Below, one piece after another: positions 22,105 to 62,124 of a stretch of DNA of 64,000 nucleotides. The number at the start of each line of letters is the position of its first letter. Positions within the stretch are counted from its first letter, which is position 1. The notes under the pieces are model-generated. The model had not been told where the DNA came from. It ran no database searches and saw only the letters and a program-made list of their open reading frames with translations. Origin of the DNA: a virus. The DNA lies in the IMG/VR virus record IMGVR_UViG_3300021364_003460, positions 32,001-96,000 of that record; one strand, 5' to 3'. The translations under genes were made by a program, and so were the position numbers.

Positions 22105-22272
22105 ATGACTTTTAAGAAAGGTGACAAAGTAAAGTTAACTAAAGACTTTCCTCCTAAGTATAAACAAGGTGAAGAAGTCAATGTAACAGAAGCTTATGAA
22201 GCGGTAGATTACTCTACTATGTATTATGAAGTTAACGCTGACATTACTGTAGAAGAAGAGGATATTGAATGA
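22105..22272 (+). CDS. small SH3-like protein (55 aa)
   Basis: Own translation MTFKKGDKVKLTKD...; ATGA overlap with nblA. Confidence 0.5.
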   Translation: MTFKKGDKVKLTKDFPPKYKQGEEVNVTEAYEAVDYSTMYYEVNADITVEEEDIE

Positions 22273-22499
22273 TGGATGAATTAGACAACTTATTAGACAA
22301 CTATAGTAAACCTGATTTAGAAATACCTTTAGAAAAAAGATTTGAAATAGCTAAATTTAATAATCTTATTGAAGGTGCTAGTAAAGAGCAAGCTATTGAG
22401 TTAGCTAAACAAGCTTGGAAATTGATGCTTATTAGAGAGCATACTATGAATGAACTACTCAAGTATGAATGGGGATTAACGGATACCAAAGCTGCATAA
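22269..22499 (+). CDS. nblA: phycobilisome degradation protein NblA
   Basis: LEKRFEI..F...I...S.EQA......W..M..RE....ELLKYEWGL aligns without gaps to recalled Anabaena NblA LEQQFSI..F..QV..MS.DQA......Y.QM..RE..YQELLKHQWGL. Confidence 0.9.
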   Translation: MMDELDNLLDNYSKPDLEIPLEKRFEIAKFNNLIEGASKEQAIELAKQAWKLMLIREHTMNELLKYEWGLTDTKAA

Positions 22500-22500
22500 A

Positions 22501-22881
22501 GTGGATATTAAATATGAAGCTCTTAATAAAGGGTTATTTAAACACACTACTAATCCAGGATTAATAAAAGAAGTTCTGTTAGAAAACTACATTGAAAAGT
22601 GTCCTAACAGAACTAGGTTAGTAAAAGAAATAGCTTACTGTCTTGTTACTTCTATTGGAGAAAGAGTTGTTAGGAAAGAATACAGAGTAGCTTACTATAG
22701 CTGCTCCACTACTGATTGGAAATATAAAGTAGTCTTTCCTAGAGTTAAATACTTTAAGTCACTTAATGATTTGATAATAATAGATATCTCTATTTTAGAA
22801 ACAAATAGAGATATATTATTTGATAAATATAGATGGTTTAAAGAAGATTTAATTAAAGAGTTAGAAAACTATGGAGAATGA
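22501..22881 (+). CDS. hypothetical protein
   Basis: 126-aa ORF, GTG start. Confidence 0.5.
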   Translation: MDIKYEALNKGLFKHTTNPGLIKEVLLENYIEKCPNRTRLVKEIAYCLVTSIGERVVRKEYRVAYYSCSTTDWKYKVVFPRVKYFKSLNDLIIIDISILETNRDILFDKYRWFKEDLIKELENYGE

Positions 22882-23104
22882 AAAATATTTTGTATCTCAG
22901 GCGTTATTAGAAAATAATAGTAGTAAACCTTTACTAATTAGAAGCCCAGATTTTCCTGAGTTAAATAATCAAAGTTTACCTGTTGGATTTAGCGGTATTA
23001 TGCAGTTTATTTACCCTAGTGATTTAAAGTTAAGAAAAGATAGCTGGATTAATAGTAAGGGTACTCCTGTGGTCTATTTAGAATTAGTAGATAAAGATTT
23101 CTAA
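22871..23104 (+). CDS. hypothetical protein
   Basis: 77-aa ORF. Confidence 0.5.
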   Translation: MENEKYFVSQALLENNSSKPLLIRSPDFPELNNQSLPVGFSGIMQFIYPSDLKLRKDSWINSKGTPVVYLELVDKDF

Positions 23105-23505
23105 ATTGTACCAACTAAAAACAAAGTTAAATCTATTGCTTCTACAGAAGTATTTCTAATAGTAATAGTATTAGAATTAAGAGTAGTTGGTAATGCAGCA
23201 GGCACTATATTATCTACAAACAGAATAGTACCTTCTACAACTTGAGTACCATAGGTTAACTCTATCTTTTGAGTAGTATCTACAGCTATAGACTTTAGAA
23301 ACTTAATTCCTAAGTCAGCTAATACTACATTAACAATCTGACCAGCAGTTAACAAATAAGGTAGCTTGTAAGATTTACAGTTCTCAATTACATTATCATT
23401 AGCTTGCAGAATGAAGTGTTCTTCTCTTTCTTTATAAGTAGAAGGACTTGTACCGCTAACTTCTTTAGTATTGTAATTTAAATTATATGAGTAAAGTAAA
23501 GACAT
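23101..23505 (-). CDS. hypothetical beta-rich protein
   Basis: 134-aa minus-strand ORF filling the gap between plus-strand genes. Confidence 0.6.
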   Translation of the reverse strand: MSLLYSYNLNYNTKEVSGTSPSTYKEREEHFILQANDNVIENCKSYKLPYLLTAGQIVNVVLADLGIKFLKSIAVDTTQKIELTYGTQVVEGTILFVDNIVPAALPTTLNSNTITIRNTSVEAIDLTLFLVGTI

Positions 23506-24046
23506 GATTTATAATGAAAGTAATGAATACTTATTCTGCCCTGAATACTTTAGACTTAACTGTGCAAGCTATGAAGTAAAGTGTTCTGAGTGTGGAGGCT
23601 GCACTGGTGAAGGTAGTTTAGAGTATATTCCTATTAAACCTTATCCTTTATTAGCTAAGAAAAAACATCCTTATTTACTACATCAAAAGAAAACTAAGAA
23701 AGATGCTACTAGAAAAGAAAAGTTAGCAAAGAGGTCTACTGAAACTAGTAAGATTGTTAAGAAAGCTCTTAGAAGTGAACGCAACAGTCTAAAAAGTATA
23801 GGAGCTAAAGGTACTATTGCTAGTGGAAGGTTTGATGGTTCTGGAGATGGATTTATATCAATCAATGATATCAAATACTATATAGAAGTAAAAACTAGAT
23901 ATTCTGATAATGCTTCTATGTTTCCTACTAGTGCTGAATGGAATAAAGCAACCAACCAAGGCTGCAAGTTATTTGTAGTAGAATCAGCTAGAGGTAGTAC
24001 AGTTACTATGAGTAAAGAAACATTTATGGAGATATTAGGTTTATAA
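23504..24046 (+). CDS. PD-(D/E)xK nuclease (Hjc/restriction-like) with Cys-rich N-terminus
   Basis: GSGDGF...YYIEVKT; C..C..C cluster. Confidence 0.55.
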   Translation: MIYNESNEYLFCPEYFRLNCASYEVKCSECGGCTGEGSLEYIPIKPYPLLAKKKHPYLLHQKKTKKDATRKEKLAKRSTETSKIVKKALRSERNSLKSIGAKGTIASGRFDGSGDGFISINDIKYYIEVKTRYSDNASMFPTSAEWNKATNQGCKLFVVESARGSTVTMSKETFMEILGL

Positions 24047-24048
24047 TT

Positions 24049-24393
24049 ATGCAAACTATAATAATGATGGCTGAGTTTGAAGGTAAATGCTTCTGGCAAC
24101 CTAAAAATGATTACTCAGCAGAATGGAAATTATGGCTACCTACTGGAGCAGCTATTGATATAGAAGACTTACCTTTAAGTTGGGAACTAAATAATCAACT
24201 AACTGAATGGGTAGAGTTCTATGATGAACACTTTGATAATACCAAGTTAATTTCTTTAGCAAAAAAAGAAGTAGCAAAAGATAACTTTGATATTTTAGGT
24301 AAACATTTATGGCAGCTAGTTAAAGAAGAATTAGCTGGTGAATATAATGTAGTTTACTATAGTGAGTTAGAAAAAAAGGTGTTAGATGCTTAA
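24049..24393 (+). CDS. hypothetical protein
   Basis: 114-aa ORF. Confidence 0.55.
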   Translation: MQTIIMMAEFEGKCFWQPKNDYSAEWKLWLPTGAAIDIEDLPLSWELNNQLTEWVEFYDEHFDNTKLISLAKKEVAKDNFDILGKHLWQLVKEELAGEYNVVYYSELEKKVLDA

Positions 24394-24550
24394 TGAAGAA
24401 TTGAAAAAAGAATTAAAAGAACTAATTATACAATTATTAGGAATGGGATTAATATTAACTATTCTTGCTTTAGTTGTAATACCTTTTTGTTTTTTACTAA
24501 CAGTTTTATCTTATTATATAATTACATTTTTAATAGACTTACTATTTTAG
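24386..24550 (+). CDS. small membrane protein (54 aa)
   Basis: Own translation with a long hydrophobic run LLGMGLILTILALVVIPFCFLLTVLSYYII. Confidence 0.5.
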   Translation: MLNEELKKELKELIIQLLGMGLILTILALVVIPFCFLLTVLSYYIITFLIDLLF

Positions 24551-24688
24551 TTATGACTAAAGAAAAGAAAGAAGAGCAGCAGGAAAAAGAAGATAAGAAA
24601 GAAAAGTATGTAAATAAACCTGGTGGTAGAAAGTAATACTTAGAGAAGCTCAGGTAGATAACAACAGTTAAATATACAACTGAATAAT

Positions 24689-25747
24689 ATGTCAGATGAA
24701 ATCACTTCATTGAAAGAATTAAAAGCTTTAGACTCTCAAATGTTTAAAATGTTTGGGGAGGATTATTATGGTATAACTAATAGGAAAAAAAATGTACAAA
24801 AATATACTTTCTTTCCTACTAGATGTCACTCTATTAATAAAGCTTTAGGTGGTAAAGGTATACCAGAAGGGGGAGTAATTAACATAGCAGGTCAAAAATC
24901 CACAGGGAAATCAGCTTTAGCCCAACTAATAATGGCTGATTTCCAAGCTCAGAATAAAATAGTAGCTTATTTTGAAGCTGGTGAAGCTTCCTTTGACCCT
25001 AGAATAGCTAATTCTTTAGGTCTAGATATAAATAAAATGATTTATGTACCTGGACCTGCCTCTGCTGAACAGATATTAGAAGGTATGAGAACAGTAATTA
25101 AAAGTGGGGTAGTTTCTTTAGTTTGTTTAGATTCAGTTAGTGGACTTAGCCCTAGAGTAGAACAAGAAGAAAAGTCCTTAGATGAAGCTACTATGGCTAT
25201 TGTACCTAGATTGCTTAGTAGATTACTAAAAGAAGTGGCTCCTATTTGTAGAAAAAATAAAACCACATTATTATTTATTAACCAAGTTAGGTCTAATTTA
25301 GGAGGTTATGGAAGTAGTGAAGTAGAACCAGGAGGTAATGCTATACCTTTTTATGCAACTATATTAGCTAAAACTAGAAGAGTAGAAATATTAAAGAAAG
25401 GAGCTAATGAAATAGGTATAAAAATAGAACTTAAAACTAACAAAAACAAAGTAGCTCCTCCCTTTACTAAAGGTACTTTTGATATCTTATTTGGGGATGA
25501 GAATGAACCAGGTTGTATAGATATCTATGGAGATGTAATAGATATAGCTTTTGATAAAGGTATAATTAAAGGTAGTAAATCTTGGATGGAATACCCTGCT
25601 GGTAATAAAATTAATGGTAGGGAAAAAATGAGAGAATACTTAAAAGATAACTCTAATATATTTACTCAATTAAGAGAAGAATTAAAACATGACAACACCA
25701 CTACAGAAACCACAGAGGAAAAAGACTACCAAGAAGAGGCAGCTTAA
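24689..25747 (+). CDS. recA: recombinase RecA
   Basis: ALGG.GIP.G, GQKSTGKS, LDSV, FINQVR, PGGNAIPFYA, KNKVAPPF. Confidence 0.97.
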   Translation: MSDEITSLKELKALDSQMFKMFGEDYYGITNRKKNVQKYTFFPTRCHSINKALGGKGIPEGGVINIAGQKSTGKSALAQLIMADFQAQNKIVAYFEAGEASFDPRIANSLGLDINKMIYVPGPASAEQILEGMRTVIKSGVVSLVCLDSVSGLSPRVEQEEKSLDEATMAIVPRLLSRLLKEVAPICRKNKTTLLFINQVRSNLGGYGSSEVEPGGNAIPFYATILAKTRRVEILKKGANEIGIKIELKTNKNKVAPPFTKGTFDILFGDENEPGCIDIYGDVIDIAFDKGIIKGSKSWMEYPAGNKINGREKMREYLKDNSNIFTQLREELKHDNTTTETTEEKDYQEEAA

Positions 25748-26192
25748 TAAACTACCTGCTAGTCTACCTAACTATAAGTATGAAGCTTTTAGTTATAAAG
25801 ATATTCAGAGAGCTGCCAGTTACTTCCAAGCTGAGTTAGCTAAAATTGAAAAGCTTATAGGTAAAGTAACTCAAATTAATAAACCTGAATCAGTTAGATA
25901 TGGTAGTACAGTAAATACTCCAAACTTCTATAATGCTGCTTTTACTCAAGCTACTAATCCTGCTAGTTATCTAGATTTACCTCCTCAACCTCCTAGAGTA
26001 TTCCCTGCTGGTACAGGAATCAATCCATATCAGCCTGGTATTGCTGGAGCTACTTTAGATATGCCAACTGTAGGTGGAGGTATTACTCCTAAAGCAGAAG
26101 TGTATGAGACTTTACAACAACCCGCAATAGTAGATAACAGTGCCGACTTAGAAAGTGAACTAAAAGATATGTTAAATCAGAATGCAAATTAG
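25689..26192 (+). CDS. hypothetical Pro-rich protein
   Basis: 167-aa ORF overlapping the recA 3' end. Confidence 0.55.
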   Translation: MTTPLQKPQRKKTTKKRQLNKLPASLPNYKYEAFSYKDIQRAASYFQAELAKIEKLIGKVTQINKPESVRYGSTVNTPNFYNAAFTQATNPASYLDLPPQPPRVFPAGTGINPYQPGIAGATLDMPTVGGGITPKAEVYETLQQPAIVDNSADLESELKDMLNQNAN

Positions 26193-26364
26193 TTTAAAAG
26201 ATAGTATTGAACACAAGGCAAAGTTAGCTTATCAAGAATTCTATAATGAATACAAACATTCTTTCTGTTTAGGTAGCTGGGAACAGTTAATTGAAGAGCA
26301 GAAGCAACATTATAGAAAAAAAGCTGCTAAACAAATATGGTCTAGTTGGGACTATGAGAAATAA
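26182..26364 (+). CDS. hypothetical protein
   Basis: 60-aa ORF. Confidence 0.5.
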   Translation: MQISLKDSIEHKAKLAYQEFYNEYKHSFCLGSWEQLIEEQKQHYRKKAAKQIWSSWDYEK

Positions 26365-26372
26365 ATAAAAGT

Positions 26373-26398
26373 AAAGCTCTCTAGTAATAGAGGGCTTT
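26373..26398 (+). terminator. putative terminator with GNRA loop
   Basis: AAAGCTCTCTA-GTAA-TAGAGGGCTTT. Confidence 0.6.
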
Positions 26399-26405
26399 TA
26401 AACTT

Positions 26406-27131
26406 ATGTCTAACAAAGGATTAAGTAAACACACTTTAAAAAGCTACAGTAAAAAGAAACCTCAGTTACGTAGGTATATTAAACAAGGTTATGAAGAACA
26501 TACTTTGTTACCTAATAGAAGTATTAGACATAGAAAATGGGATAGAAGAAATCCTTATAAAATAGTTGAAAAGTATTTAGAGTCTAAAGTAGGTTGCAAC
26601 TGGAATGATGTTTACTCAGAACTTAGAAGTAAAATAGGATATTTTAAAGTAGAAGATTATATCAAATCTTTTACTATTAAAAAATATAAAAGACTAACTT
26701 GGAGTAGATATGGTAAAGTTTACTATTCTATAGATAAAAAAATTAAAGGTATTAGACCAGGTGAATTTTATATAGACTCAAATAACTTACTTCAACAAGT
26801 ACCCAAAAAGAGAAAGATAAATAAAGTAAAAAAACCTATAGTTATCAAGATAGATGATAACCATGAGTATAGATATTTAGAGAATAAAGCTAGTTGGTAT
26901 TACTATTACAAAGATATTACTAAAAAAGTAAAGAAAAGATTAGTAGTAGACAGTAAAGGCAAACCTGTTTTTTACAATAGACTTAACTGTAAAATATTAG
27001 ACCCTATGTTGTTAGGTACTCCTATGTTTACTTATCAGACTGTAGAAAAGGTAACTTGGGAAAGAGATCCTATAGATACGTTTGGTAATTATCATAGATT
27101 AAAACTTAGAAATTTAGGAGTGTTCTTATGA
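26406..27131 (+). CDS. basic hypothetical protein
   Basis: 241-aa Lys/Arg-rich ORF; YLESKVG..WNDVYSE motif. Confidence 0.6.
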   Translation: MSNKGLSKHTLKSYSKKKPQLRRYIKQGYEEHTLLPNRSIRHRKWDRRNPYKIVEKYLESKVGCNWNDVYSELRSKIGYFKVEDYIKSFTIKKYKRLTWSRYGKVYYSIDKKIKGIRPGEFYIDSNNLLQQVPKKRKINKVKKPIVIKIDDNHEYRYLENKASWYYYYKDITKKVKKRLVVDSKGKPVFYNRLNCKILDPMLLGTPMFTYQTVEKVTWERDPIDTFGNYHRLKLRNLGVFL

Positions 27132-27140
27132 TAGTAAAAA

Positions 27141-27437
27141 GTGGTCAAGATGATTATGACTGGCATTAGAGAAAAACTCTACTCTGAAATCTTTGTTGAG
27201 TTACCTATATTAGCTAAAGAACAAAAGTGGGCTATAACTGCTGACCACTGTATAGGAAGAATAATTTATGACTCTGTAATGAGTTGTAAGTGGAGTAAGG
27301 TAGTTAAGTCACCTTTCTATAAGAATGCTGAGTTGAGTAAAGTTGAGGAAGCTCTATTAGTGTGCGATCGCCTAAAGGTGGAAGGTAAAATATTAGCTGA
27401 CAAGTTGAATGAAGAGAGTTTGAGATATAGAAAATGA
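27141..27437 (+). CDS. hypothetical protein
   Basis: DHC..RI..D....W......FYK...LN..SL.YR pattern; contains the HIP1 site. Confidence 0.55.
   Translation: MVKMIMTGIREKLYSEIFVELPILAKEQKWAITADHCIGRIIYDSVMSCKWSKVVKSPFYKNAELSKVEEALLVCDRLKVEGKILADKLNEESLRYRK
27364..27371. repeat. HIP1 octamer GCGATCGC
   Basis: Exact match read in the sequence. Confidence 0.8.
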
Positions 27438-28531
27438 TAGATATTTACAGCTTAAATGAGATACCTAAAAAGTTTAATAAACAAGGACTCTGTTATTTTG
27501 GTAAGCTGACTAAAGAAGAGTTGCCTTTAGATTGTGAGCTAGAGTATGTTCCAGGCTATACCAATATATACCTAAACTCATTTGAAGAAGACTTTGTGCA
27601 GTTTGAGTACATGGATGGATTTAGTCCTAACCTTAATAAGAAGCTACACTTAGGTCATCTTAGTAACTTTATCTTTGCTAAAACTTTTCAATCACTGGGA
27701 GTTAGTAAACAAACTATTGCTATCTATGGAGATACCTTAAAAGGAACTGACTACACCAATAAAAATCAGATAATGTTTGACTACAAAGTAGATAAAGAAT
27801 ACTTTGCTAGTCAGATGACACTTAGTGATGACAGTATATTAAGTAATGGTAAGGGTAAGTATGAAGGTGCTAAAGTCTGGCAAGATAATGTAATGATTAA
27901 GTCCAATGGAGGTACTACATACTTCTATCAAGATGTAGCTCTAAGACAGCATCTAAAGTTACCAACTCTATACTTAACTGGACAAGAACAAGTAAATCAC
28001 TTTGCTGAACTTAAAAAGTATGATGGCAATGTTACTCATATAGGATTAGGTTTAGTCAACCTTAATGGCAGCAAGATGAGTTCTAGAGAAGGTAATGTTG
28101 TCTTTATGGAAGAAGTTGTAAGTAAACTAAATGAAGGTTTTAATAACTTAAAGTTAACTTACAATGTGCTGGCTGGTAGTCTTATTAAAAGTAATCCCAC
28201 TACTAATAAGAATATAAACATGACTGACTTAATGGATGTAAAGAAATCATTAGGTCTGTATGTGAGCTATTCACTGGCTAGATTAGATAAGCTACCTATT
28301 GAGTTTGAAAAGGTAGAAATTAGCCCTTTAGTTAAGTATCTGTATGCTAAGTCTAAAATTAAGTTGAATCCTTCTATATTGTTCAATAAGTTAGTAGAGG
28401 TGTGTCAAGCTTTCAATGGAGACTATGAAAGTAAAAGTAGTCAGGAGAATGTTGAGTTGTATTCTCAATATAAGGTAGATGCGGAGTATATGTTTGATAA
28501 GTTAGGGTTGTATAAGGTTGAGAAGGTGTAG
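27434..28531 (+). CDS. argS: compact arginyl-tRNA synthetase-like protein
   Basis: PGYTNIYL, FSPNLNKKLHLGHL (HIGH), KSNGGTTYFYQDVA, YLTG.EQ..HF, KMSSREGNVV, GLYVSYSLARL. Confidence 0.8.
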   Translation: MIDIYSLNEIPKKFNKQGLCYFGKLTKEELPLDCELEYVPGYTNIYLNSFEEDFVQFEYMDGFSPNLNKKLHLGHLSNFIFAKTFQSLGVSKQTIAIYGDTLKGTDYTNKNQIMFDYKVDKEYFASQMTLSDDSILSNGKGKYEGAKVWQDNVMIKSNGGTTYFYQDVALRQHLKLPTLYLTGQEQVNHFAELKKYDGNVTHIGLGLVNLNGSKMSSREGNVVFMEEVVSKLNEGFNNLKLTYNVLAGSLIKSNPTTNKNINMTDLMDVKKSLGLYVSYSLARLDKLPIEFEKVEISPLVKYLYAKSKIKLNPSILFNKLVEVCQAFNGDYESKSSQENVELYSQYKVDAEYMFDKLGLYKVEKV

Positions 28532-28694
28532 ATAGCAAGTATCAAGCTTGTTCAACTTTTCCATTCACCTTTTCAGACTTTTCTTTGAGTCAAATAGGTT
28601 GTAGCCTTTCTATTGAGCAACTAGACAAATAACAAGAGTAAGTTAACCTAAAGATAGTAAGATAAGTAAGACTACTAGAAGTCAACCTAGAATA

Positions 28695-28748
28695 AGACCT
28701 CTAAGTGAGAACCTAAGAGGTCTAAGACTAAGTAGTCTATCTAGATAG
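28695..28748. repeat. cluster of three inverted repeats
   Basis: AGACCTCT(28695-702)/AGAGGTCT(28716-723); AGACTA(28725-30)/TAGTCT(28733-38); palindrome CTATCTAGATAG (28737-48). Confidence 0.75.
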
Positions 28749-28758
28749 CAACCCTAAG

Positions 28759-30234
28759 CTAAGTTATAAGACCTCCCTCTAAGTCTGTAGTTATCCTAAG
28801 TAAGGAAGCTTGCGCCCTAACAGCCTCCTTCATTTTACTCTCTAAAGACTTTACTAAATTACCTTTATTGTAGTGTACTGTAAATCCATCATGCTGAAAG
28901 AGAGTAATAGACATATATTTACTATTCTCTTTAGCTATATCAAAGACTGGCTTAAGTAATACCATCTCCATTAGTTGAGCCTCCTGAGCTAACAAAGACT
29001 TAACACAGTCATGTCTTTCTTTATCAGTATTACCTTCTACTAAAAGTTCTCTACCATCATGCCAGTCTAAAGTTAACTTACCCTCTTCTAAGACTTTAGT
29101 TATCTTAGCTTCTCTGGCTTTATAAAGAGCTGCCATAATGGGACGGGCTAACACATCAGCACCCTTCTTGGCTATCTTTAGTTTCTTAAATCCTTTAGTC
29201 AGTCTAGCTAATAAACATGACTTCTTCATACCATAAATAAGAGAATAAAGACTTTCTTTAAGTAAACCTTTGAGAGCATCAAACCAACCAGGGTTATTTA
29301 ATTTATTGTAAGTATAGTTAATTCCTAAATGAGTAAAGAGGGAAGTCCAGATATGGTTGCCTGATTGTAAGAATTCTTGTACTTCTGTTATGTTCCATAG
29401 TTTAGCTACTATAGCCAACTGACTACTAACTAAATCATACTCATACCAACCCTTACAGATGGCTTTTCTTAGCTTTCTACAAAGAAGTAGTATACTTTCC
29501 CCATGAGGAAATATCCTTACTGTTCTACCAGCACTGCTAGGTTTGTAGTAAGGCTTAGGATTCTCATATATAGATAGAAGTATCTTAGTTTCTATTTCTC
29601 TTAAAGTAGCGTCCTTAGTAGGCTTGAGTTTAGGGTTAGTTTCATTAGACTCTAATCTAGCCAGCACACTAGACACATGGTCAAGGTTTTCTTTAACTTT
29701 GCTAGTAAAAAGATTAGAAGGTAAATTATTTAAGTATTCTAATAAAGGTAGTGCCTCTACAGAAGCATTATCATAGAATCTCTTAACTTCCTCTTCTAAC
29801 TCCTTTCTAATTTCACCAGGAGTATTCTTATTAGCTTTCTTTAAAGTAATAAAGTTGATCATGTTTGTACTGTTACCTATAGGAAAATAACCTAACTCTT
29901 TTTGAATATAATACTGTACTTCTAAAGCAAAGTAAGGAATAGCTGACCTAGCTTTACCTTCTTCATAACTGTACTCTTTAATAGCTAACTTTAAACCTGT
30001 TTCTTCTTGAAATTTAGTTAGATAGTTGCCTGCATTGTAGCGGTGATTTTTAAGTTTCTTATAGCAACCTTCACAACTAGCTAAAGTATGTCTATCTAAA
30101 ACAGTATAGTTTTCTTTGTTCTTACTAAAGATAAGTTTGAGAACTAGCTTTCTGTAACCAGCATTATCTTTAAGAACTGGGTAATGTTCAAGAAGAGAGT
30201 TAGTTAACTCTTGAGATATTAATCTTTTTATCAT
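28759..30234 (-). CDS. minimal family A polymerase-like protein (TV-Pol-like)
   Basis: Minus strand (CAT at 30232-30234; track strand is wrong). Motif A YEYDLVSSQLAI, motif B K...YSLIYG, motif C FQHDGF; no exonuclease domain. Confidence 0.65.
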   Translation of the reverse strand: MIKRLISQELTNSLLEHYPVLKDNAGYRKLVLKLIFSKNKENYTVLDRHTLASCEGCYKKLKNHRYNAGNYLTKFQEETGLKLAIKEYSYEEGKARSAIPYFALEVQYYIQKELGYFPIGNSTNMINFITLKKANKNTPGEIRKELEEEVKRFYDNASVEALPLLEYLNNLPSNLFTSKVKENLDHVSSVLARLESNETNPKLKPTKDATLREIETKILLSIYENPKPYYKPSSAGRTVRIFPHGESILLLCRKLRKAICKGWYEYDLVSSQLAIVAKLWNITEVQEFLQSGNHIWTSLFTHLGINYTYNKLNNPGWFDALKGLLKESLYSLIYGMKKSCLLARLTKGFKKLKIAKKGADVLARPIMAALYKAREAKITKVLEEGKLTLDWHDGRELLVEGNTDKERHDCVKSLLAQEAQLMEMVLLKPVFDIAKENSKYMSITLFQHDGFTVHYNKGNLVKSLESKMKEAVRAQASLLRITTDLEGGLIT

Positions 30235-30361
30235 ATAATTAAAATATATATTGAGATTGGATTGAAATATATAAGTTAGACTTAGTAGTTAAAGAGGGAG
30301 TTATTAGAAGTAGCTGCCTCTATTTTAATGTATACATTTATAGTACCAAAAAGGGCTAGTT

Positions 30362-30511
30362 ATGGCAAGGAGAAAGTGGGTTGAAAAAAGAATTAAAATA
30401 AGCTTTTCACAAACAGAAATAGATAAATTAGAAGCTTATTGTGAAAAGCATGAAAGAGAATATAGTGATGTGATTAGAGAGCTAGTAAGAAATCTAAAAG
30501 TGGAGGATTAA
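30362..30511 (+). CDS. ribbon-helix-helix (CopG-like) DNA-binding protein (49 aa)
   Basis: Own translation RIKISFSQTEIDKLEAYCEKHEREYSDVIRELVRNL; absent from the ORF track. Confidence 0.75.
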   Translation: MARRKWVEKRIKISFSQTEIDKLEAYCEKHEREYSDVIRELVRNLKVED

Positions 30512-30513
30512 AA

Positions 30514-32044: not shown

Positions 32045-32047
32045 AAT

Positions 32048-32792: not shown

Positions 32793-32821
32793 ATATAATT
32801 AGTAAAATACAGTAAACAAAA

Positions 32822-32841: not shown

Positions 32842-32847
32842 ATTTTA

Positions 32848-51221: not shown

Positions 51222-51255
51222 CATAATAATTACTCAATAAATAGTAATTATTATG
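51222..51255 (+). promoter_or_regulatory. hairpin sequestering the endonuclease start codon
   Basis: CATAATAATTAC/GTAATTATTATG perfect 12-bp stem whose 3' arm ends with ATG 51253-55. Confidence 0.65.
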
Positions 51256-52257
51256 AATAGAAAAGTAAATATTGAAGAACTATTAGGTTTGTGGAATAAA
51301 GGACTTACTAGAGAACAAATTGCTAAAATTTTAAAAGTACATGTAGCTACAGTAAGTAAACATTTAAATTCTAAATTAGATTATATAGAGAGAAGACATT
51401 CTAAAGATAAACTTATTCATCTAGATATGAATAAAGTTAAAGAGTTAAGAGAAAAAGGTTACACAAGTAAAGAAATAGAAACAGAACTAAATATTTCTGA
51501 TAGTTGTTTGTATTTAGCAGGGATGTCAAAATTTCCTTTTAAAAGAAAAGGAATACACACTTACTCAAAAGATTTAGAATTCTTTAATAAAATAGACTCT
51601 TCTGAAAAAGCATATATAATTGGATTTTTACTTACTGATGGTTCAATAAATAAAAGAGGAAATATATCAATAGAAATTAAATCAGAAGATGATTATATTC
51701 TACAAAGTATAAGAGATTTAATCTGCCCTAATAAACCTATACCTAAATCTATCAGAACAAGAACAAGAGGAAAATACACTTGGACTTCTGAAACAAGTAG
51801 ATTAAATATAAAATCTGTAGAGTATATTCAACCCCTATCTAATTTTGGTATTGTACCTAATAAAACTTACAAAGACATACAATTACCAAAATTAGATGAA
51901 AAATATATGCCTGATTTAATAAGAGGTATATTTGATGGAGATGGTTCTATCTGGTCAAATAAAACAAGAAATAGAGGGCATGCTGTTAACTTTACAGGCA
52001 ATTATGTTTTACTAAAAGATATTTTTGATTACTTAAAATCTAACAATATTATAAAAGCCAATACTTCTGTAAAGAAAAAACCTCATCAGGCTGATTCCTA
52101 TTTTGTTTTCTCTTCAAAGAAAGATGTAATTAACTTTGGTAAATATATTTATTCCACAAATTGTTCTTTATATCTAAAAAGAAAATACTTAAAATTTGTA
52201 GATGCAGGTTTGCCTGTTAACTCCATGAATTGCTGGGATAACTTGAAGGCTAGTTAA
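51253..52257 (+). CDS. intron-encoded LAGLIDADG homing endonuclease with N-terminal HTH repeats
   Basis: KAYIIGFLLTDG and LIRGIFDGDG; same family as 37500..38381. Confidence 0.92.
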   Translation: MNRKVNIEELLGLWNKGLTREQIAKILKVHVATVSKHLNSKLDYIERRHSKDKLIHLDMNKVKELREKGYTSKEIETELNISDSCLYLAGMSKFPFKRKGIHTYSKDLEFFNKIDSSEKAYIIGFLLTDGSINKRGNISIEIKSEDDYILQSIRDLICPNKPIPKSIRTRTRGKYTWTSETSRLNIKSVEYIQPLSNFGIVPNKTYKDIQLPKLDEKYMPDLIRGIFDGDGSIWSNKTRNRGHAVNFTGNYVLLKDIFDYLKSNNIIKANTSVKKKPHQADSYFVFSSKKDVINFGKYIYSTNCSLYLKRKYLKFVDAGLPVNSMNCWDNLKAS

Positions 52258-53846: not shown

Positions 53847-54016
53847 GTTTAAAGAACTTCCAGTACCAACTTACTTTACTTATGAAAACATTCATTACCA
53901 AAAGATGACTAAAACTAAAGTAAGAGAGTTTGGTACTACTACAAAAAGGGTAATTAGAAGTGATCCTAAAGTTACTTATTGAAGACAAGACATTAATGAA
54001 ATGTTAATAGGAATTA

Positions 54017-54844
54017 ATGAAAGTAACTGATGCTCCTCTTTCTCTAGTCTCCTATCATATACAGCAAAAGGAAAAGATAATTCCCAACCTGTACAGACCT
54101 GAGACAGAGAAGGAGTTATTAAGTGTACTAAGGTTGGGGACTCCTTATGAACCAACCTTTAGTTTGATAGAGTACAAAGATAAACCACCTGCCAACTTAC
54201 AGGTAAGTGCATTTAATACAGTTTATCTTTGTACTAAAGAAGTAGATAGCTGGAGAGAACTTAATAAGAGTTGGATAGAAATACTAAAGTTATATCCAGA
54301 ACTTTATAAAGAAAACTTAAATAGATTTAAGAAACTATTTGACTTTGAAGCGCAAGATTACTTATGGGAAACCTACAAGAACTATCCCAAGAAGTTAACT
54401 TCAGAAGTAATTAAAATAGTATTAACACACCCTAAAAGAAAGCAGACTATAGAAGACTTAGGTGTAAAGAACCAAAAAGAAGTAAATGTCTTTTTAGATA
54501 TCTGTCTAAACTTAGGAAATGTAGAATACTCTAAAACTATATTTGAGTTATCAGAAAGTTCTCTCAAATTGCTATTTATTGGTAGTGATAAAAAACCTCC
54601 TTATATTTATTACTTTCTAGTAGGTAGTAAAAGGAAAACAGGTAATAACCCAGAGTTATGGCAAGCTGTACAGATATTACAGGAAGCAGTTAATAGTAAA
54701 TACATTCCTATAAATATAGGTGCAGTATTGTTTAACCAATGGGTTAGTAGTGTAACAAAGATACAACTTAATTATAAGAAGTATCAATATCAGTTTGATT
54801 GTAATAATTTAATTGAATTAGAAAGTTTACTTAAAGGATTTTAA
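54017..54844 (+). CDS. hypothetical protein (possible clamp-loader delta-like subunit, by context only)
   Basis: 275 aa next to dnaX; no diagnostic motif. Confidence 0.3.
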   Translation: MKVTDAPLSLVSYHIQQKEKIIPNLYRPETEKELLSVLRLGTPYEPTFSLIEYKDKPPANLQVSAFNTVYLCTKEVDSWRELNKSWIEILKLYPELYKENLNRFKKLFDFEAQDYLWETYKNYPKKLTSEVIKIVLTHPKRKQTIEDLGVKNQKEVNVFLDICLNLGNVEYSKTIFELSESSLKLLFIGSDKKPPYIYYFLVGSKRKTGNNPELWQAVQILQEAVNSKYIPINIGAVLFNQWVSSVTKIQLNYKKYQYQFDCNNLIELESLLKGF

Positions 54845-54858
54845 AAAGGAAATTAATT

Positions 54859-56025
54859 ATGTCAGATTTAGCATTAGTCAACAATGACGCTATTTTAGAT
54901 GAATTAGCTTTGTTATATGGAGTAGAAACAGAAGAACCAGAAAGACATCAAGGTAATAGAATTGTTTATACAAATAAAACTAAAGTAGATGGAATTAGAG
55001 TAGTTAAAGGTAAATCTTGGCAAGAAGGAGACACTTTTAAATGGAATGTTCCCAACTCAGAAGAAATAGAAGACTTTGAAGATGAATTACCTGCTGTACA
55101 TGAAATTGAAGGGTTTATTGTACATAGTGAAATTCAACCTAAACTAGATATAGAAAATGAAGATAACTCAGAAAGAGCTACTAAAACTATTTGTTCTGTA
55201 GTTGGCTATAAAAAAGGAGATAACTATGTTAAAGAATTACCTTCTACTATTAATTTAGGTTACAGAAATGGTTCTGTTTATGGAAGTATGTATGGTGGCT
55301 GGATTAAAACAAGTGAAAAGAGTCATCCAGATCATCTTAAACCTAATGCTGACTTAGAACAATATGGATTCTTAGGAAGTAGAGGTAAATCCTGTTTAGA
55401 TTGCATTAAATGTGGTGAATCTACCTACACTAATAATAAGGGTAAAACTTTTGAGTGTACTCCAGATGCAAGAATCTTTGTCTACGTAACTCACTTTATT
55501 AGAAATAAAAAAAATGAGCAAGTGAGAGTTTCAGTTAAAGACCTCTTAGGTGAAGATGGGGTTATTTTGATGTTTAGCCTATCTCATAAATTAGGTATGG
55601 TGGGTAATTACAACAAAGATAATCCTGAGTTAAACAGAGACTCCTACTTAAGATTCTTATCTAATTTACATAGAGCATTCTGGAGCAAAAAAGCTACTTA
55701 TGCTGAGATTGATCCTAGAGTAAATCACCAAATTAGAATTTCTATCAAACCTCCACTACCTAAAACAAAGAACACTAAAAACTATTTACATTTTACTGAA
55801 ATATTTCCTTGTGACAAAGGAGCTTTAGTGCAGGCAGCTAAGTATTGGAGAACATTATTACCCCCTAAAGAAACAGAAATCTTAGATCCCTCTAACTGGG
55901 TTATTAATGGAGTAGGAGGTACTACAGTCTACTCTTCTGCTAAAGTAGATGACTCTGTAGATTATGAAGTCTATCCTGCTTTACCTGAATCAGAAGATGA
56001 GCCCGATTCAGGTATCCCATTCTAA
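54859..56025 (+). CDS. putative ssDNA-binding or annealing protein
   Basis: Acidic tail ESEDEPDSGIPF resembles the SSB DDDIPF tail; CxxC..C motif; replication context. Confidence 0.45.
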   Translation: MSDLALVNNDAILDELALLYGVETEEPERHQGNRIVYTNKTKVDGIRVVKGKSWQEGDTFKWNVPNSEEIEDFEDELPAVHEIEGFIVHSEIQPKLDIENEDNSERATKTICSVVGYKKGDNYVKELPSTINLGYRNGSVYGSMYGGWIKTSEKSHPDHLKPNADLEQYGFLGSRGKSCLDCIKCGESTYTNNKGKTFECTPDARIFVYVTHFIRNKKNEQVRVSVKDLLGEDGVILMFSLSHKLGMVGNYNKDNPELNRDSYLRFLSNLHRAFWSKKATYAEIDPRVNHQIRISIKPPLPKTKNTKNYLHFTEIFPCDKGALVQAAKYWRTLLPPKETEILDPSNWVINGVGGTTVYSSAKVDDSVDYEVYPALPESEDEPDSGIPF

Positions 56026-56047
56026 ATTAGTCTAGTTTACTAATAGT

Positions 56048-56074
56048 ACACTTAGGTGAACTTCACCTAAGTGT
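56048..56074. repeat. 27-bp interrupted palindrome
   Basis: ACACTTAGGTGAA-C-TTCACCTAAGTGT. Confidence 0.8.
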
Positions 56075-56098
56075 CTTTAACATTTACAACTGAATAAG

Positions 56099-57565
56099 AT
56101 GACTAAAGTAAATATAAGATTTAATGCAGCTATCTGTAAGATAGAAGGTTTAAATAGGGATATTGTAGAAGCTATTAAATATAGATTTAGAGTTGAACTA
56201 ACTGAAGAAAGATATCAAGATTACAAAACTAAAACTAGACTACCTTTAACTAAAGAAAGTGCTAACTATTATTTAGTAGAAGAGTTTGATAAGTATATTC
56301 AGATTCCTACAGGTTTACTTTTAAAGTTAGTTAACTATCTGAAAACTATTAAAGTTGAATATAATTTACATAAACAAATTCAACCTGCTGGTTTAGATAG
56401 AAAACCTTATATATCTCTTAGAGAGGAGCAACAGTTAGCTGTAGATAAGTTTATTGCTAACAAGAGAGGTATTATTAAGGCTCCTACCTCATGGGGAAAA
56501 TCGAGAACAATAGCTGAATTATGTAGACAATTTAGTAATCAAACTAAAATACTTATTTTAGTACCTACAGTTCTTTTGCTTTATCAGATGCAGCAGGATA
56601 TAGTTGACTATATTGGTATGAGTAAAGAAGATATAGGTCTAATTGGAGATGGTAATTACATTACTAGAAATCTTATTACTGTAGCTATACCTGATACTTT
56701 AGCTAGTAAAATACAAAACTTAGACTCTGAAGTAATTAGTTATTTACATTCAGTAAATGTAGTAATAAATGATGAACAGCATACTCATTTAACTCCTACT
56801 ACTTTTGCTATCAGTGATTTTTTAGTAAATACAGAATACAGATTTGGATTATCAGCTACTCCTACTTTAGATAATTTTAGTGAAGCATTAATAGGAACTA
56901 AACTTCATGAGTTCTCTGTAAAAGAAAGTATGAAAAGTAATACTATTGAGACTCCTGAAATTATATTTCATAAGATTACAAAGAAGGTAGATATCACTCC
57001 TAAATTAGCTAACTTTAAGTTTGAACAATTTACCCCTAAAGAAATGAAAATATATAACAATCTTTATGATAAAATAATTTGTTCTAACTCATATAGAAAT
57101 CAGTTAGCAGCTTCAATAGTAGAACAAGAATTAGAAGAAGATAGGATCATATTAGTTTTAGTTAAGAAAGTAGCTACTTCTGGAGGAACAGTTAACCATG
57201 CTGAGATTATGCAAACTTATTTAGCTGCATTAGGAATTAACTTTGAGATTGTGCATGGTAAATCTAAAAACAAACAGGAGCTACTAGATAAGTTAGCTAA
57301 TGAAGAGATTAAAGGTTTAATAGCCTCTGTAGGTATTCTGTCTGAAGGAGTATCTATTAACTCTATATCTAGTTTAGTAAATCTTAGTGCTGGCTCTAAT
57401 GAAAAAGACTTTATACAAAGAGCTGGTAGAACATTAAGAAAAGGAAGACTGCAACCTAGAATACATGACTTTGTAGACTGTCAATATCCTTTTAATAATC
57501 AATCTAAAACTAGATTAGAGATTGCTAAGAAAGAGTATGGTTCAGAAAATGTAATAGTAATTTAA
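56099..57565 (+). CDS. SF2 helicase (UvsW/ResIII-like)
   Basis: EEQ, APTSWGKS, NDEQH, GLSATP, LSEGVSI, QRAGRTLR. Confidence 0.9.
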   Translation: MTKVNIRFNAAICKIEGLNRDIVEAIKYRFRVELTEERYQDYKTKTRLPLTKESANYYLVEEFDKYIQIPTGLLLKLVNYLKTIKVEYNLHKQIQPAGLDRKPYISLREEQQLAVDKFIANKRGIIKAPTSWGKSRTIAELCRQFSNQTKILILVPTVLLLYQMQQDIVDYIGMSKEDIGLIGDGNYITRNLITVAIPDTLASKIQNLDSEVISYLHSVNVVINDEQHTHLTPTTFAISDFLVNTEYRFGLSATPTLDNFSEALIGTKLHEFSVKESMKSNTIETPEIIFHKITKKVDITPKLANFKFEQFTPKEMKIYNNLYDKIICSNSYRNQLAASIVEQELEEDRIILVLVKKVATSGGTVNHAEIMQTYLAALGINFEIVHGKSKNKQELLDKLANEEIKGLIASVGILSEGVSINSISSLVNLSAGSNEKDFIQRAGRTLRKGRLQPRIHDFVDCQYPFNNQSKTRLEIAKKEYGSENVIVI

Positions 57566-57590
57566 TAACTAAATATAAGGAGATTTAAGT

Positions 57591-58871
57591 GTGACTACTG
57601 AATTAGAGTCTATTTCAGGCTGCCCTGGTTCTGGAAAAAGCTTTCTACTTAAACAAAAACCTAATACTTTACTTACTTCAACTACAGGTATCACTGCTCT
57701 TAATTTAGGAGATAGTAATAGAACTATTAACTCTACATTAGGGTTCTTTAATAGAAAAGAGTTAGCTGCAAAGTCTAGCTTAGGAGAAGTGTTTCCTAGA
57801 TTGTTAAAAATTAGTAGTTTATATAAGTATATTGCTATAGATGAAATAAGTATGCAGTCAGGAGAAGTAACTGACTTAATTGTTAAAGAGATAGCTAACC
57901 ATAATAAAATAGTATCTGAGTCAAAAAAATATTCTAAAAAACATAATTTATTAGGTTTAATTTTAGCTGGGGATGCAGGGCAACTCCCTTATGTAGCAGA
58001 CAAAGATGATATTAGAAATGGTATATCTAATAAACCTTATTTTAAAGCAGCTACTTATAAATTCTTTAAACAGACAAATTTAACTGAAATAAAGAGACAG
58101 AATGATAAACAGTTTATTGAAGCTCTTAATTATCTCAGATATGGTAAAGCTAAAGAAGTGGTAGACTGGTTTATAGATAAAGTAGAGTTTAGTAATACTA
58201 TAGATGACAATTGGGAAGGATCTACTTTTTTTGCTATTAATAAAGAAGTAGATGAGTATAATTATGAAAGGTTAGAAAAGTTAAATACTCCTGAGAAAAC
58301 TTACTATGCAGAATACTCAGGTATACCTAATAAAGATTGGGATAGAAACATACCTAATTCTATTACAGTAAAACCAGGTATGAAAGTAATGATTCTAGTT
58401 AACAACTTTGAGGAAATGTATGCTAATGGAGATTTAGGTATTCTAATAGATTGCTTTCCTCAAGGAGTATTAGTTGAGTTAGCTAGAGATAAAAGACAAG
58501 TTTTAGTAAACTACAGAACAGTCTATAATACATCTATCTCTATTAGTAAAAAGACTGGATTGCCTTATGAAAAAAGAATAGGTAGTTGTAATTATCTTCC
58601 TATTAGACAAGGAGACAGTTCAAGTTTTCATAAAGCACAAGGACTTACTTTAGATAAAGTCCAACTATCTATAACTGGCAAAGGTGGAGACTTTTTAAAA
58701 AGACTTAGTGGGGGGCTCTATACAGGCATTACTAGAGTAACTGACTATAAAGGTCTTAGAATAGTAGGTACTAAAGATGACTTTATTAGAGCTTGTTATA
58801 TTAATCCTCTATATCTAGACTACCTACTCAAATTAGACTCACTAAATCAACCTCAACTTATGGCAGCCTAA
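57591..58871 (+). CDS. Pif1/RecD-like SF1B helicase
   Basis: GCPGSGKS, TTGITA, TINS, IDEISM, GDAGQLP, RQND, KAQGLTLD, TGITRV. Confidence 0.9.
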   Translation: MTTELESISGCPGSGKSFLLKQKPNTLLTSTTGITALNLGDSNRTINSTLGFFNRKELAAKSSLGEVFPRLLKISSLYKYIAIDEISMQSGEVTDLIVKEIANHNKIVSESKKYSKKHNLLGLILAGDAGQLPYVADKDDIRNGISNKPYFKAATYKFFKQTNLTEIKRQNDKQFIEALNYLRYGKAKEVVDWFIDKVEFSNTIDDNWEGSTFFAINKEVDEYNYERLEKLNTPEKTYYAEYSGIPNKDWDRNIPNSITVKPGMKVMILVNNFEEMYANGDLGILIDCFPQGVLVELARDKRQVLVNYRTVYNTSISISKKTGLPYEKRIGSCNYLPIRQGDSSSFHKAQGLTLDKVQLSITGKGGDFLKRLSGGLYTGITRVTDYKGLRIVGTKDDFIRACYINPLYLDYLLKLDSLNQPQLMAA

Positions 58872-58900
58872 ATTACCTATAGTTTTAGAGTAATTGTTAT

Positions 58901-60178
58901 ATGTTATCCCCTCAAGAAAGAAAAGAAAGAATACTAAGTGAAATTAAGATTAGCCAAATAGTTAATGTAAAAGATTATGGGAGTTCTACTTGTCCTTGTT
59001 GTGGTAAGTCTAATAAATTTAGTATTCATAGTAATAGAGGTAAATGCTGGTCTAGCTACTGTGAGTTAAACAAATCATTAGATGTAATTAGTCTTTATCA
59101 ATGGAAGCATAACTTAGCTGATAGATGGGAAGCTACTAAAGCTATAGAACAAGAGTTTAATTTACCTGTAGGTAGTAATAAACCTAATGAGAGAAGTCAA
59201 TTATTAGAGCAATGTTTAATTATCTACCAAAAGTATTTATGGTCTAATCAGCAAGCATTAGATTACTTAAGGAATAGAGGCTTTTTAGAAGAAACTATTA
59301 GAGAACTAGGTTTAGGTTATGCACCTGATTTTAGCTGCCTTACTAAACAGGGTATTAAAACTACTGACTTACAAAGAGAAGGATTATATAAAGAAGGTAA
59401 AGAATACTACTCTAAAAGAATCATCTTTCCTATTAGAAATAAATTTGGGCATTTAGTTCACTTTCAAGGCAGATATATATTGCCTATAGCTAAAGATGAT
59501 AAAGGTGAAGATACTATTCCTAAATATAAAGATAGTAGACCTGCTAACAATAAAACTACTAAAGACTTTCTCTATTTAGAAGAACATATAGAAAAATATC
59601 TTAAGTCTAGTAATATGTTATATGTAGCTGAAGGTTGTCCTGATACTATCTCTTTATGGCAGAAAGGATTACCTGTGGTTGGTTCACTAGGTTTAGAGAA
59701 ATTAACTAGTCACATTAATAAACTAAAGAAGTTTGATTACATAGTTTTTATGTTTGACAATGATACTTACCCTTCTCACCATCCTAAATATTCTTTAGAA
59801 TATAAAAGCTGGGTTAGAGTTATACCTCAACTAATAGACTTACAAATAGCTTTACCTACTACTAACTTTTATACTTGCTTAGTTCCTCATCATACTATCC
59901 ATAAACAAAATAAGTATGCTGTTGAGACTAAGGATATTAATGAGTGGTTAACAATAGGACAGCTAACTAAAGATGAAGTAGAAAAGTACATTAATTCTAA
60001 GAAAAAAGAGTTTGTTAGTTCTCTAGTTGAACAAGAAGGTAGTAACATTAGCTATCACTTTAACTTACTTAAACTTATTCAGGTTACTGGTAAACACTAT
60101 CTTAAAGAAGAGCTATTTAGATTCCTACCTCCAATGAAGTCTCCTATAGATTATGCTTGTGAAGTGTTGGCTGCTTAA
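58901..60178 (+). CDS. dnaG: DnaG-type primase
   Basis: Zn finger CPCC...C..C, YL.NRG, LGYAP, RIIFPI, FQGR, KY, EG..D, FDND, KDINE. Confidence 0.92.
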   Translation: MLSPQERKERILSEIKISQIVNVKDYGSSTCPCCGKSNKFSIHSNRGKCWSSYCELNKSLDVISLYQWKHNLADRWEATKAIEQEFNLPVGSNKPNERSQLLEQCLIIYQKYLWSNQQALDYLRNRGFLEETIRELGLGYAPDFSCLTKQGIKTTDLQREGLYKEGKEYYSKRIIFPIRNKFGHLVHFQGRYILPIAKDDKGEDTIPKYKDSRPANNKTTKDFLYLEEHIEKYLKSSNMLYVAEGCPDTISLWQKGLPVVGSLGLEKLTSHINKLKKFDYIVFMFDNDTYPSHHPKYSLEYKSWVRVIPQLIDLQIALPTTNFYTCLVPHHTIHKQNKYAVETKDINEWLTIGQLTKDEVEKYINSKKKEFVSSLVEQEGSNISYHFNLLKLIQVTGKHYLKEELFRFLPPMKSPIDYACEVLAA

Positions 60179-60180
60179 TT

Positions 60181-60807
60181 ATGTTATATGCTTTCTCTTA
60201 CATATTAGATGAGATTAATGTAATACTTCCTTTTAATATAGTTGCTATTAAGATTCCTGAAGATAACAAAAAGGAAGTATACTCTTTAGTAAAAGATTTA
60301 GACTTAAAAAACATTAATTTTAGAACCTCTAAAAGTATACTTACTAAACTTAAAAAAGCTAATATCAAATATAGTTACTTTGAGTTAGGTAAATTTGAGG
60401 TAGAAAAATATGGACTTGAATCAGCTTACTACAGACAGATTAGATATTTTAGTAATTTAGATGACCTAACAGTAAGTAATCTAAATTCTAACCTGTCTAA
60501 CTTTCCTGAAGGTATTACCTACTTTAAAGAGTTTAGTAGTGTACCTGAATTAACAATAAGCTATCTTTACTCAAAGTACATTAGAGAATACTATTTAAAA
60601 AGAATAAATCTACAATATCCAGAACTTCAAATAATTAAACATAAAGGAAAGTTAACCAAACAACATAAGCGTATATTACTTAACTTAAATAATCTACCTA
60701 ACTTTTATAATGAAAGTTTTCTAATTAACTATTTCTTAAGTAAACAGATAGTACCTAAATGGGCTAACAACTATATTAAAACCAATTATGAGCAGCTTAT
60801 TAAATAA
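60181..60807 (+). CDS. hypothetical protein
   Basis: 208-aa ORF. Confidence 0.55.
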   Translation: MLYAFSYILDEINVILPFNIVAIKIPEDNKKEVYSLVKDLDLKNINFRTSKSILTKLKKANIKYSYFELGKFEVEKYGLESAYYRQIRYFSNLDDLTVSNLNSNLSNFPEGITYFKEFSSVPELTISYLYSKYIREYYLKRINLQYPELQIIKHKGKLTKQHKRILLNLNNLPNFYNESFLINYFLSKQIVPKWANNYIKTNYEQLIK

Positions 60808-61183
60808 ACTATTTATAGATTCTTTCTCTTACTTTGAGAAGAAAGAGTTGACTATACCAGAAGCTCTTAAAGTTACCGATATCTTATTGCTAAGTATAAA
60901 TGTAAATACTTCTAAGTCAGATGAGTTTACTTCTTATCTAGATAACTTTATTGAGTTAAACAAACTATTGTCTAATCACTTTCCTAACCTTACAGAAAAG
61001 GAAACAGAGATGTTAGATAACAGTAGGTATGAGTTAGTAAAAACATTAAAGGAAGAAAAGAAACCAGAGGCTTTAGCTAAGATTAAAGAAAGAAGATTAG
61101 AACTTTATAATAAACATCATTCAGAGTTAGTTAGTAAAGTCAAAGAATACAAAAATGAATTAACCAATATTAAAGCAGCATAG
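60788..61183 (+). CDS. hypothetical protein
   Basis: 131-aa ORF ending -KAA. Confidence 0.55.
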   Translation: MSSLLNKLFIDSFSYFEKKELTIPEALKVTDILLLSINVNTSKSDEFTSYLDNFIELNKLLSNHFPNLTEKETEMLDNSRYELVKTLKEEKKPEALAKIKERRLELYNKHHSELVSKVKEYKNELTNIKAA

Positions 61184-61192
61184 AGGAGCATA

Positions 61193-61534
61193 ATGAATGA
61201 CCAGTTTAAACAATTAGTAAATACAGATGAGAGAGTAATAAAAGGTAAACTACCTGTATTACAAAAGTCCAATGACCCAGATCACTATGAAAGGAGAAAG
61301 CAACAGAGAGCTATTACTGAGGAAATGGTAGCTTTATGTCTATCTTATGGTGAAAAGAAAAGGATTAGAGGCGCATTGACTTATACTATTCTAGATAAAA
61401 ACTTGAAAGATACTAGATACCAAAAGTACCTATCTGAATTAAGGGGGTTAAGAGTTGTTTTAAATAAGTTAAATGAAGATTCCTTATTAGGTATCCATAC
61501 AGTTTACTGGGTAGACTCTGTTAGAAAGAAGTAA
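61193..61534 (+). CDS. DUF4258-like protein
   Basis: H..RR.QQRAI........YG...RVV pattern; GAGGAG RBS. Confidence 0.55.
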   Translation: MNDQFKQLVNTDERVIKGKLPVLQKSNDPDHYERRKQQRAITEEMVALCLSYGEKKRIRGALTYTILDKNLKDTRYQKYLSELRGLRVVLNKLNEDSLLGIHTVYWVDSVRKK

Positions 61535-61551
61535 AATATATTACTACTATT

Positions 61552-62124
61552 ATGCCTACTATTATTTCTATTGACCCTGGAGCTAAAGGTTTTATTACTG
61601 TATTAGAATTAGTAAAACAATATCCTGTTGAGTGTATTCCTATTCCCACTATTAAAATAAAGATTAATAAAAGAAATAGAACTAAAATTGATGAGGATAT
61701 GTTATCTAAACAGTTACATATATTAGTAGACAAATACAGACCTATTGAAATAGTTATTGAAAAACAGCAAGTTATCTCAGGCAGTAAAAATAATAAAGGT
61801 GAAATAGTTAATCAAGGTATAGTTTCATCTGCTTCTACTATGGAACACTTTGGTTGGTTAAAAGGTTTTTGTGATGGTAAACAAATTAAGAGAACTGTAG
61901 TAGCTGCTAAAACCTGGCAGACTATATATCCAGAGTATGTAAAGAAAGCAGACAAAGTAACAACTAAAGATAAAAGTAAACTGTATTGCTCTATTTTATT
62001 TCCTGACTTAGACCTTAAAAAGTCTGCTAGAAGTAAAGTAGTTAGTGATGGTAAAACAGATAGCATTCTTATTGGAGTATGGAGAGCAAGACAACTTCAG
62101 TTAGATAACCAAATAGCAGCTTAG
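61552..62124 (+). CDS. ruvC: RuvC-like Holliday junction resolvase
   Basis: ISIDPG..G, IVIEKQ, G.LKG, KTWQ, DG..DSILI. Confidence 0.8.
   Translation: MPTIISIDPGAKGFITVLELVKQYPVECIPIPTIKIKINKRNRTKIDEDMLSKQLHILVDKYRPIEIVIEKQQVISGSKNNKGEIVNQGIVSSASTMEHFGWLKGFCDGKQIKRTVVAAKTWQTIYPEYVKKADKVTTKDKSKLYCSILFPDLDLKKSARSKVVSDGKTDSILIGVWRARQLQLDNQIAA

Follow-up and report, generated by a model that had tools for sequence, protein, structure and literature searches.

We analysed a 64,000-nucleotide stretch of viral DNA, bases 32001-96000 of the 190,865-bp IMG/VR virus record IMGVR_UViG_3300021364_003460 (G000; 31% GC), in which nine open reading frames (ORFs), among them those for RecA, a DnaG-type primase and a RuvC-like resolvase, encode proteins that end in Ala-Ala. 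This whole stretch is called the window, and coordinates are those of the window unless marked as genome (Table 1). A first interpretation made from the letters of the DNA, here the sequence-only reading, had listed the nine endings; all of them are present where it placed them, its gene identities are broadly right, and the near variants it mentioned (LCVA, LKAS and LLAS) exist. It had also expected fewer than one such ending by chance, and the expectation we compute for the window is ~0.5. Two more Ala-Ala ends occur elsewhere in the genome, bringing the count to 11 among 270 ORFs, where the internal Ala-Ala dipeptide frequency of 0.0045 predicts 1.17 (binomial p = 4e-8, or 1.7e-5 once corrected for 400 dipeptides), and Ala-Ala is the commonest C-terminal dipeptide genome-wide. 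Val-Ala, Thr-Ala, Ser-Ala, Ala-Ser and Ala-Val ends are not individually enriched in this genome, and our claim is limited to Ala-Ala. The position of a stop codon is independent of the choice of start codon, and any spurious ORFs in the set merely dilute the signal.

The endings are concentrated in a single gene module. The replication and recombination block (genome 54-95 kb) holds 9 in 68 ORFs, compared with 1 in 117 among the small early-type genes upstream and 1 in 85 downstream, and composition is even along the window. At the DNA level the ends are diverse: the Ala residues are encoded by GCT, GCA, GCC and GCG and the genes stop at TAA, TAG or TGA, as had been noted before, and no DNA motif common to the stop-codon surroundings of the Ala-Ala genes was found.

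Table 1. Genes of the window whose products end in Ala-Ala, followed by three near variants.
Product	Length (amino acids)	C-terminal residues	Position	Strand	Matches and remarks
NblA homologue	76	TKAA	22269..22499	+	Pfam PF04485, 34 bits
RecA	352	EEAA	24689..25747	+	Pfam RecA, RecA_C; acidic low-complexity tail
32472 protein	106	VEAA	32472..32792	+	no Pfam or PHROG match
Small GIY-YIG / T5orf172 nuclease-like protein	86	REAA	32848..33108	+	Pfam MUG113, T5orf172, GIY-YIG
LAGLIDADG homing endonuclease	293	QKAA	37500..38381	-	Pfam LAGLIDADG_3; between two polA parts
Pif1/RecD-like SF1 helicase	426	LMAA	57591..58871	+	weak Pfam matches; ending on a ~14-residue extension
DnaG-type primase	425	VLAA	58901..60178	+	Pfam DNAG_N, Toprim_2
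60788 protein, helical	131	IKAA	60788..61183	+	no Pfam or PHROG family
RuvC-like Holliday-junction resolvase	190	QIAA	61552..62124	+	phrog_1770
Near variant	144	LCVA	12941..13375	+	G001 orthologue ends LFAA
Near variant, ORF within dnaX interruption	334	LKAS	51253..52257	+
Near variant, PD-(D/E)XK nuclease	383	LLAS	62155..63306	+	Pfam PDDEXK_1

The phage probably infects a cyanobacterium, because it carries nblA, a homologue of its DnaG is found in the assembly of Calothrix sp. FACHB-1219, and a related contig lies inside a genome bin (G006) with a cyanobacterial transfer-messenger RNA (tmRNA) tag, ANNIVPFARKQVATAVA, which ends AVA. Metagenome contigs of 192 and 222 kb carry the same phage as G000, and part of a 359-kb contig in the Calothrix assembly matches a second, 168-kb record, G001. 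IMG/VR labels both records 'provirus', a label that for G000 lacks the support of a tyrosine integrase, since none was found in its genome; no tRNA or tmRNA gene was found in the G000 record either. Scans with single proteins returned no close relatives from the annotated phage collection or from IMG/VR, and the relatives used here came only from an alignment-based scan and from a large protein database. Searched with DnaG at the protein level, homologues grade from 90% down to 34% identity, and the DnaG and RecA homologues led to the syntenic loci that we compared: L103, L054, L105, L001, L055, L104, L002, L003, L005 and G001.

These relatives support the earlier proposal that selection acts on the peptide, since the third positions of the Ala codons and the stop codons change and the ending is retained. 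For the final two codons of Ala-Ala genes in the inner clade, differences fall at 23 of 64 third positions and at only 15 of 128 first and second positions, against 133 of 376 for the final two codons of other genes (p = 1.5e-7), and 15 of 32 comparisons of Ala-Ala genes show a changed stop codon. Between proteins of 20-50% identity, the terminal dipeptide is the same in 9/25 comparisons for Ala-Ala genes and in 9/109 for others (p = 0.001). Replacements of Ala-Ala in orthologues are mostly Ala to Val, which gives Val-Ala. In the Pif1, RecA, RuvC-like and 60788 families, tails of variable length and variable sequence still end in Ala-Ala. The Pif1-like helicase illustrates this well: its LMAA, PMAA or PLAA ending is retained down to 38% identity as Ala codons and stops change, and where the wider family stops at ...YLKW[ILV] the close clade adds 8-14 variable residues that end in Ala-Ala, so that the ending occurs in just 6 of 150 family representatives, all six within the ten closest. 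The ending has also appeared on other replication proteins of relatives, with EIAA on a DEAD-type helicase and SLAA on a 20-residue extension, and G001, which has gained the ends SNAA and LFAA, carries five Ala-Ala endings against 0.9 expected. The turnover of codons and stops, the variable tails, the independent gains and the extensions in the Pif1 clade together point, in the comparative sequence data, to selection on the peptide at the very C-terminus and to its repeated gain.

The same data bear on whether the peptide has any function. The endings could be a lineage-specific by-product of mutation, of stop-codon context or of shared ancestry of the protein ends, which would suit a trait that is limited to one clade and often lost; some conserved ends, such as that of DnaG, may moreover reflect nothing but conserved structure. 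Such a by-product would not be expected to keep its Ala residues through third-position and stop-codon turnover, to arise independently on unrelated proteins and at the tips of extensions that differ in length, to lack a flanking motif, or to be confined to one functional module though composition is uniform along the window. The codon-level data disfavour this explanation, and we hold it to be highly unlikely.

The genes differ in how faithfully they keep the ending. It is found in 7 of 9 clade homologues of RecA, whose compared orthologues end EAA, EAA, EVA and QAA; the RecA of G001 ends IQAA, and that of P0119 has a diverged tail with its QAA end retained. The acidic tail ...EEDYQEEAA is common to two RecA lineages that are just 40% identical. 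DnaG retains Ala-Ala in 10 of 11 homologues at a minimum of 66% identity (the exception, P0011, ends IAT) and also in the homologue from the Calothrix assembly, which ends GAA; more distant homologues have lost it. In the 60788 family, [LS]KAA ends 6 of 7 orthologues, even two whose identity is down to 26%, and insertions and deletions lie immediately upstream; a PDB fold search with the window protein gave no significant match. The RuvC-like resolvases of the window and relatives end IAA, IAA, KVA, LTA, KAA, EVA and RAA on tails that differ in length. The tail of NblA extends 10 residues beyond its domain, and its orthologues end KAV (L054), IAA (L055) and QLG (G001). Orthologues of the 32472 protein end EAA (L054), IVS (L055) and EVA (G001), and those of the GIY-YIG protein QAA (L054) and KVA (L055). 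The LAGLIDADG endonuclease within polA has no orthologue in the relative loci compared. Among the near variants, the LLAS of the PD-(D/E)XK nuclease is retained in L001, and the L002 orthologue ends IHA.

Enrichment of Ala-Ala ends is specific to this phage clade. More distant relatives with the same gene order (G002, G003 and G005) have none in 379 ORFs, the G006 bin shows no excess, and bacterial C-termini in general lean the other way, being depleted in hydrophobic residues and hydrophobic pairs in a survey of 1,582 bacterial genomes (PMC7246954). The bin, taken as a 1.15-Mb sample, has 6 Ala-Ala ends in 863 ORFs against 8.25 expected, with an Ala content nearly twice that of the phage; it is a single cyanobacterial bin of uneven GC (0.445-0.62) and may not be the true host. 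The sequence-only reading had held that an equal frequency in host or background proteomes would refute it, and the comparison, now run, reveals no enrichment in either the bin or the distant relatives.

What would select for two terminal Ala residues on so many different proteins? We infer that they form an ssrA-like C-terminal degron or unfoldase-recruitment tag that is read by an AAA+ protease of the host, most likely ClpXP, and we assign this reading a probability of roughly 0.5. Terminal Ala-Ala, sometimes Val-Ala, would serve as a short peptide signal on replication and recombination enzymes, homing nucleases and NblA. The AAA+ protease with which the host recognises the tmRNA tag would bind the free Ala-Ala-COOH, after which the bound protein would be unfolded and degraded; in a cyanobacterium the reader would probably be ClpX with ClpP1P2. 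Potentially harmful DNA enzymes could in this manner be kept short-lived, or their complexes on DNA could be dismantled by the unfoldase. To judge from their endings, the Ala-Ala-tailed proteins are probably short-lived.

Work in other bacteria makes this plausible. In E. coli, Ala-Ala dominates the strong C-terminal degrons, ClpXP is their main reader, and a ...LVA tag equals ...LAA as a ClpXP substrate (PMC10862746). The alternation of Ala and Val in the phage orthologues fits this degron family, and the tmRNA tag of the G006 bin also ends in Val-Ala. Cyanobacteria possess both ClpXP1P2 and ClpCP3R (PMC7966870). The likeness to the ssrA tag and to the ClpX C-motif-1 ending that had been seen at the outset is real as far as the free Ala-Ala and its alternation with Val-Ala go; it does not reach further upstream, where no tmRNA-tag-like head (ANNIV, ANDENY) was found within the last 30 residues of the Ala-Ala tails. 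The tails differ in how easily a protease could reach them. AF2 models the 60788 protein as a bundle of helices (pLDDT 85.5) that gives way to a non-helical end with pLDDT <50, a prediction of a flexible tail. The Pif1 extension and the acidic RecA tail are likely to be accessible, judging by their sequences.

Several observations weigh against a degron. The trait is not strictly conserved gene by gene, and besides the distant relatives with the same gene order, eight further IMG/VR loci lack Ala-Ala endings. A hydrophobic residue (M, L, I or V) precedes Ala-Ala in just 4 of the 11 tails of the genome, the other 7 having K, E or D at that place. E. coli screens favour Leu or another hydrophobic residue at -3 and disfavour Pro, Gly, His and small polar residues at that position; Ala-Ala is necessary yet insufficient for recognition by ClpXP, and upstream residues matter (PMC10862746). 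With K, E or D before an Ala-Ala that is insufficient by itself, some of the phage tails may, under E. coli rules, work poorly as degrons or not at all. Those rules may differ for the ClpX of cyanobacteria, whose Clp degrons are barely characterised (PMC7966870). In DnaG, residues 415-424 (...IDYACEVLAA) form a confident terminal helix in the AF2 model, and this ending may be conserved for structure or for helicase binding. Finally, the phage genome has no ClpX/A/C-type or other AAA unfoldase and no SspB (no match to PF07724, PF00004 or PF04386), and no PDZ domain was found in the phage. The reader, if there is one, would consequently be a host protein or an unrecognised phage protein.

A signal of this kind could also recruit something other than a protease. 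Ala-Ala-COOH might be a docking peptide for a shared partner, for instance a replisome hub of phage or host, and so organise the replication and recombination machinery with no degradation involved; the C-terminal tips of SSB and of T7 gp2.5 and gp4 are analogues. The concentration of the tails on replisome and recombination proteins of one module would be natural for a docking peptide, as would the acidic RecA tail shared across divergent lineages and the helix at the end of DnaG, which is what one expects of a helicase-binding end. Yet the same ending sits on proteins from outside the replisome, namely NblA and two homing nucleases unrelated to each other, only the last two residues are common to the tails once RecA is set aside, and no PDZ-type reader was found in the phage. 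We consider docking unlikely.

A degron would have a further possible component in a gene that lies outside the window. At genome 27219-27749 (L097:7219-7749), ~4.3 kb before the window starts, the phage encodes a ClpP-family protein of 176 amino acids, and a host unfoldase working with this peptidase could read the tails as a degradation system that is partly phage-encoded. The gene stands among small early-type ORFs near rIIA and rIIB and not in any structural module, its product has true ClpPs as best solved relatives and aligns with them at the catalytic-triad Ser and His, and close relatives have the gene in their syntenic early region, with 56-67% identity. None of G001-G005 has it; among these, G002, G003 and G005 are without Ala-Ala endings (those of G004 were not counted). 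Other observations point away from such a system: NCBIfam and PHROG match the product best to ClpP-related head-maturation proteases, at scores under the curated cut-off, some 20 residues at the N-terminus of ClpP are missing, and G001 has its five Ala-Ala endings yet no ClpP-like gene. A role for this peptidase in reading the tails is improbable. The rIIA- and rIIB-like genes themselves (phrog_612 and phrog_609) are at genome 15279-18204 (L096).

The sequence-only reading had gone on to two ideas about purpose. One, that the endings act as a timer which clears the DNA enzymes before packaging, is speculation and finds no support in the present data. The same is true of the other, that they flood the Clp capacity of the host. 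In its fuller form this would make abundant Ala-Ala-ended phage proteins decoys that saturate ClpXP in competition with ssrA-tagged or regulatory substrates of the host. All that speaks for it is the likeness to the tag and how many proteins are tailed, and one would look for decoys among abundant or dedicated proteins rather than among low-copy enzymes such as homing nucleases, a resolvase and a primase. We find this the least credible of the explanations considered.

Relatives also differ in the make-up of the module that carries the endings. In a sister phage (L054:10001-11092) DnaG is 90% identical to that of the window and RecA just 40%, with the acidic tail of RecA unchanged, a case of mosaicism. 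In L002:3950-9867, L003:868-6785 and L005:1874-8606, where GC is ~45%, an insert between the genes for the Pif1-like helicase and DnaG holds two large PAS/GAF histidine kinases, two response-regulator genes and a small ORF. Some replication genes that are intact in the window contain inteins and LAGLIDADG or Endonuclease-VII genes in relatives (L103:6508-8976; L104:2737-5564; L055:18528-20368), examples being an 822-residue, intein-containing Pif1-like helicase and a split ResIII helicase. This points to heavy turnover of selfish elements in the replication module.

Natural ssrA-like degrons are well known, and their conserved use across a whole phage module is not described in the literature that we searched; a full-text search found no published account of Ala-Ala tails as a phage programme. 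One could go further and propose that one lineage of large, cyanophage-like phages tags its whole replication and recombination module, together with its selfish nucleases, for degradation or unfolding, and that ClpX-type machinery of the host, possibly with the ClpP-like peptidase of the phage, controls phage DNA metabolism. We offer that broader picture tentatively, and think it more probably wrong than right. If the endings are degrons, protein lifetime would be encoded directly in phage genes for an entire functional module, a level of control that has hardly been studied in phage development. They would also supply the first natural candidate set of substrates and degrons for the ClpXP of cyanobacteria, for which almost none is known (PMC7966870), and a natural series of graded tags (AA, VA, AS, AV) for cyanobacterial synthetic biology.

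Among known systems, the closest likeness is to the tmRNA (ssrA) tag and the natural ClpX C-motif 1 degrons (...LAA-COOH, ...LVA). The phage tails share with them the free C-terminal Ala-Ala, for which Val-Ala is the commonest replacement in the phage, and are often short, variable and probably flexible. Unlike the ssrA tag, the phage ending is encoded in the genes of a whole protein module, lacks a head of the ANNIV or ANDENY kind, and often has Lys or Glu in place of Leu ahead of Ala-Ala. A second comparison is with MuA and lambda O, single phage proteins that ClpX handles through a terminal signal, which is ...RRKKAI at the end of MuA and N-terminal in lambda O. There, as we propose here, phage proteins of DNA transactions are passed to a host unfoldase for remodelling or destruction. 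MuA and lambda O are single proteins with other motifs, whereas in this phage one dipeptide ends about ten unrelated proteins.

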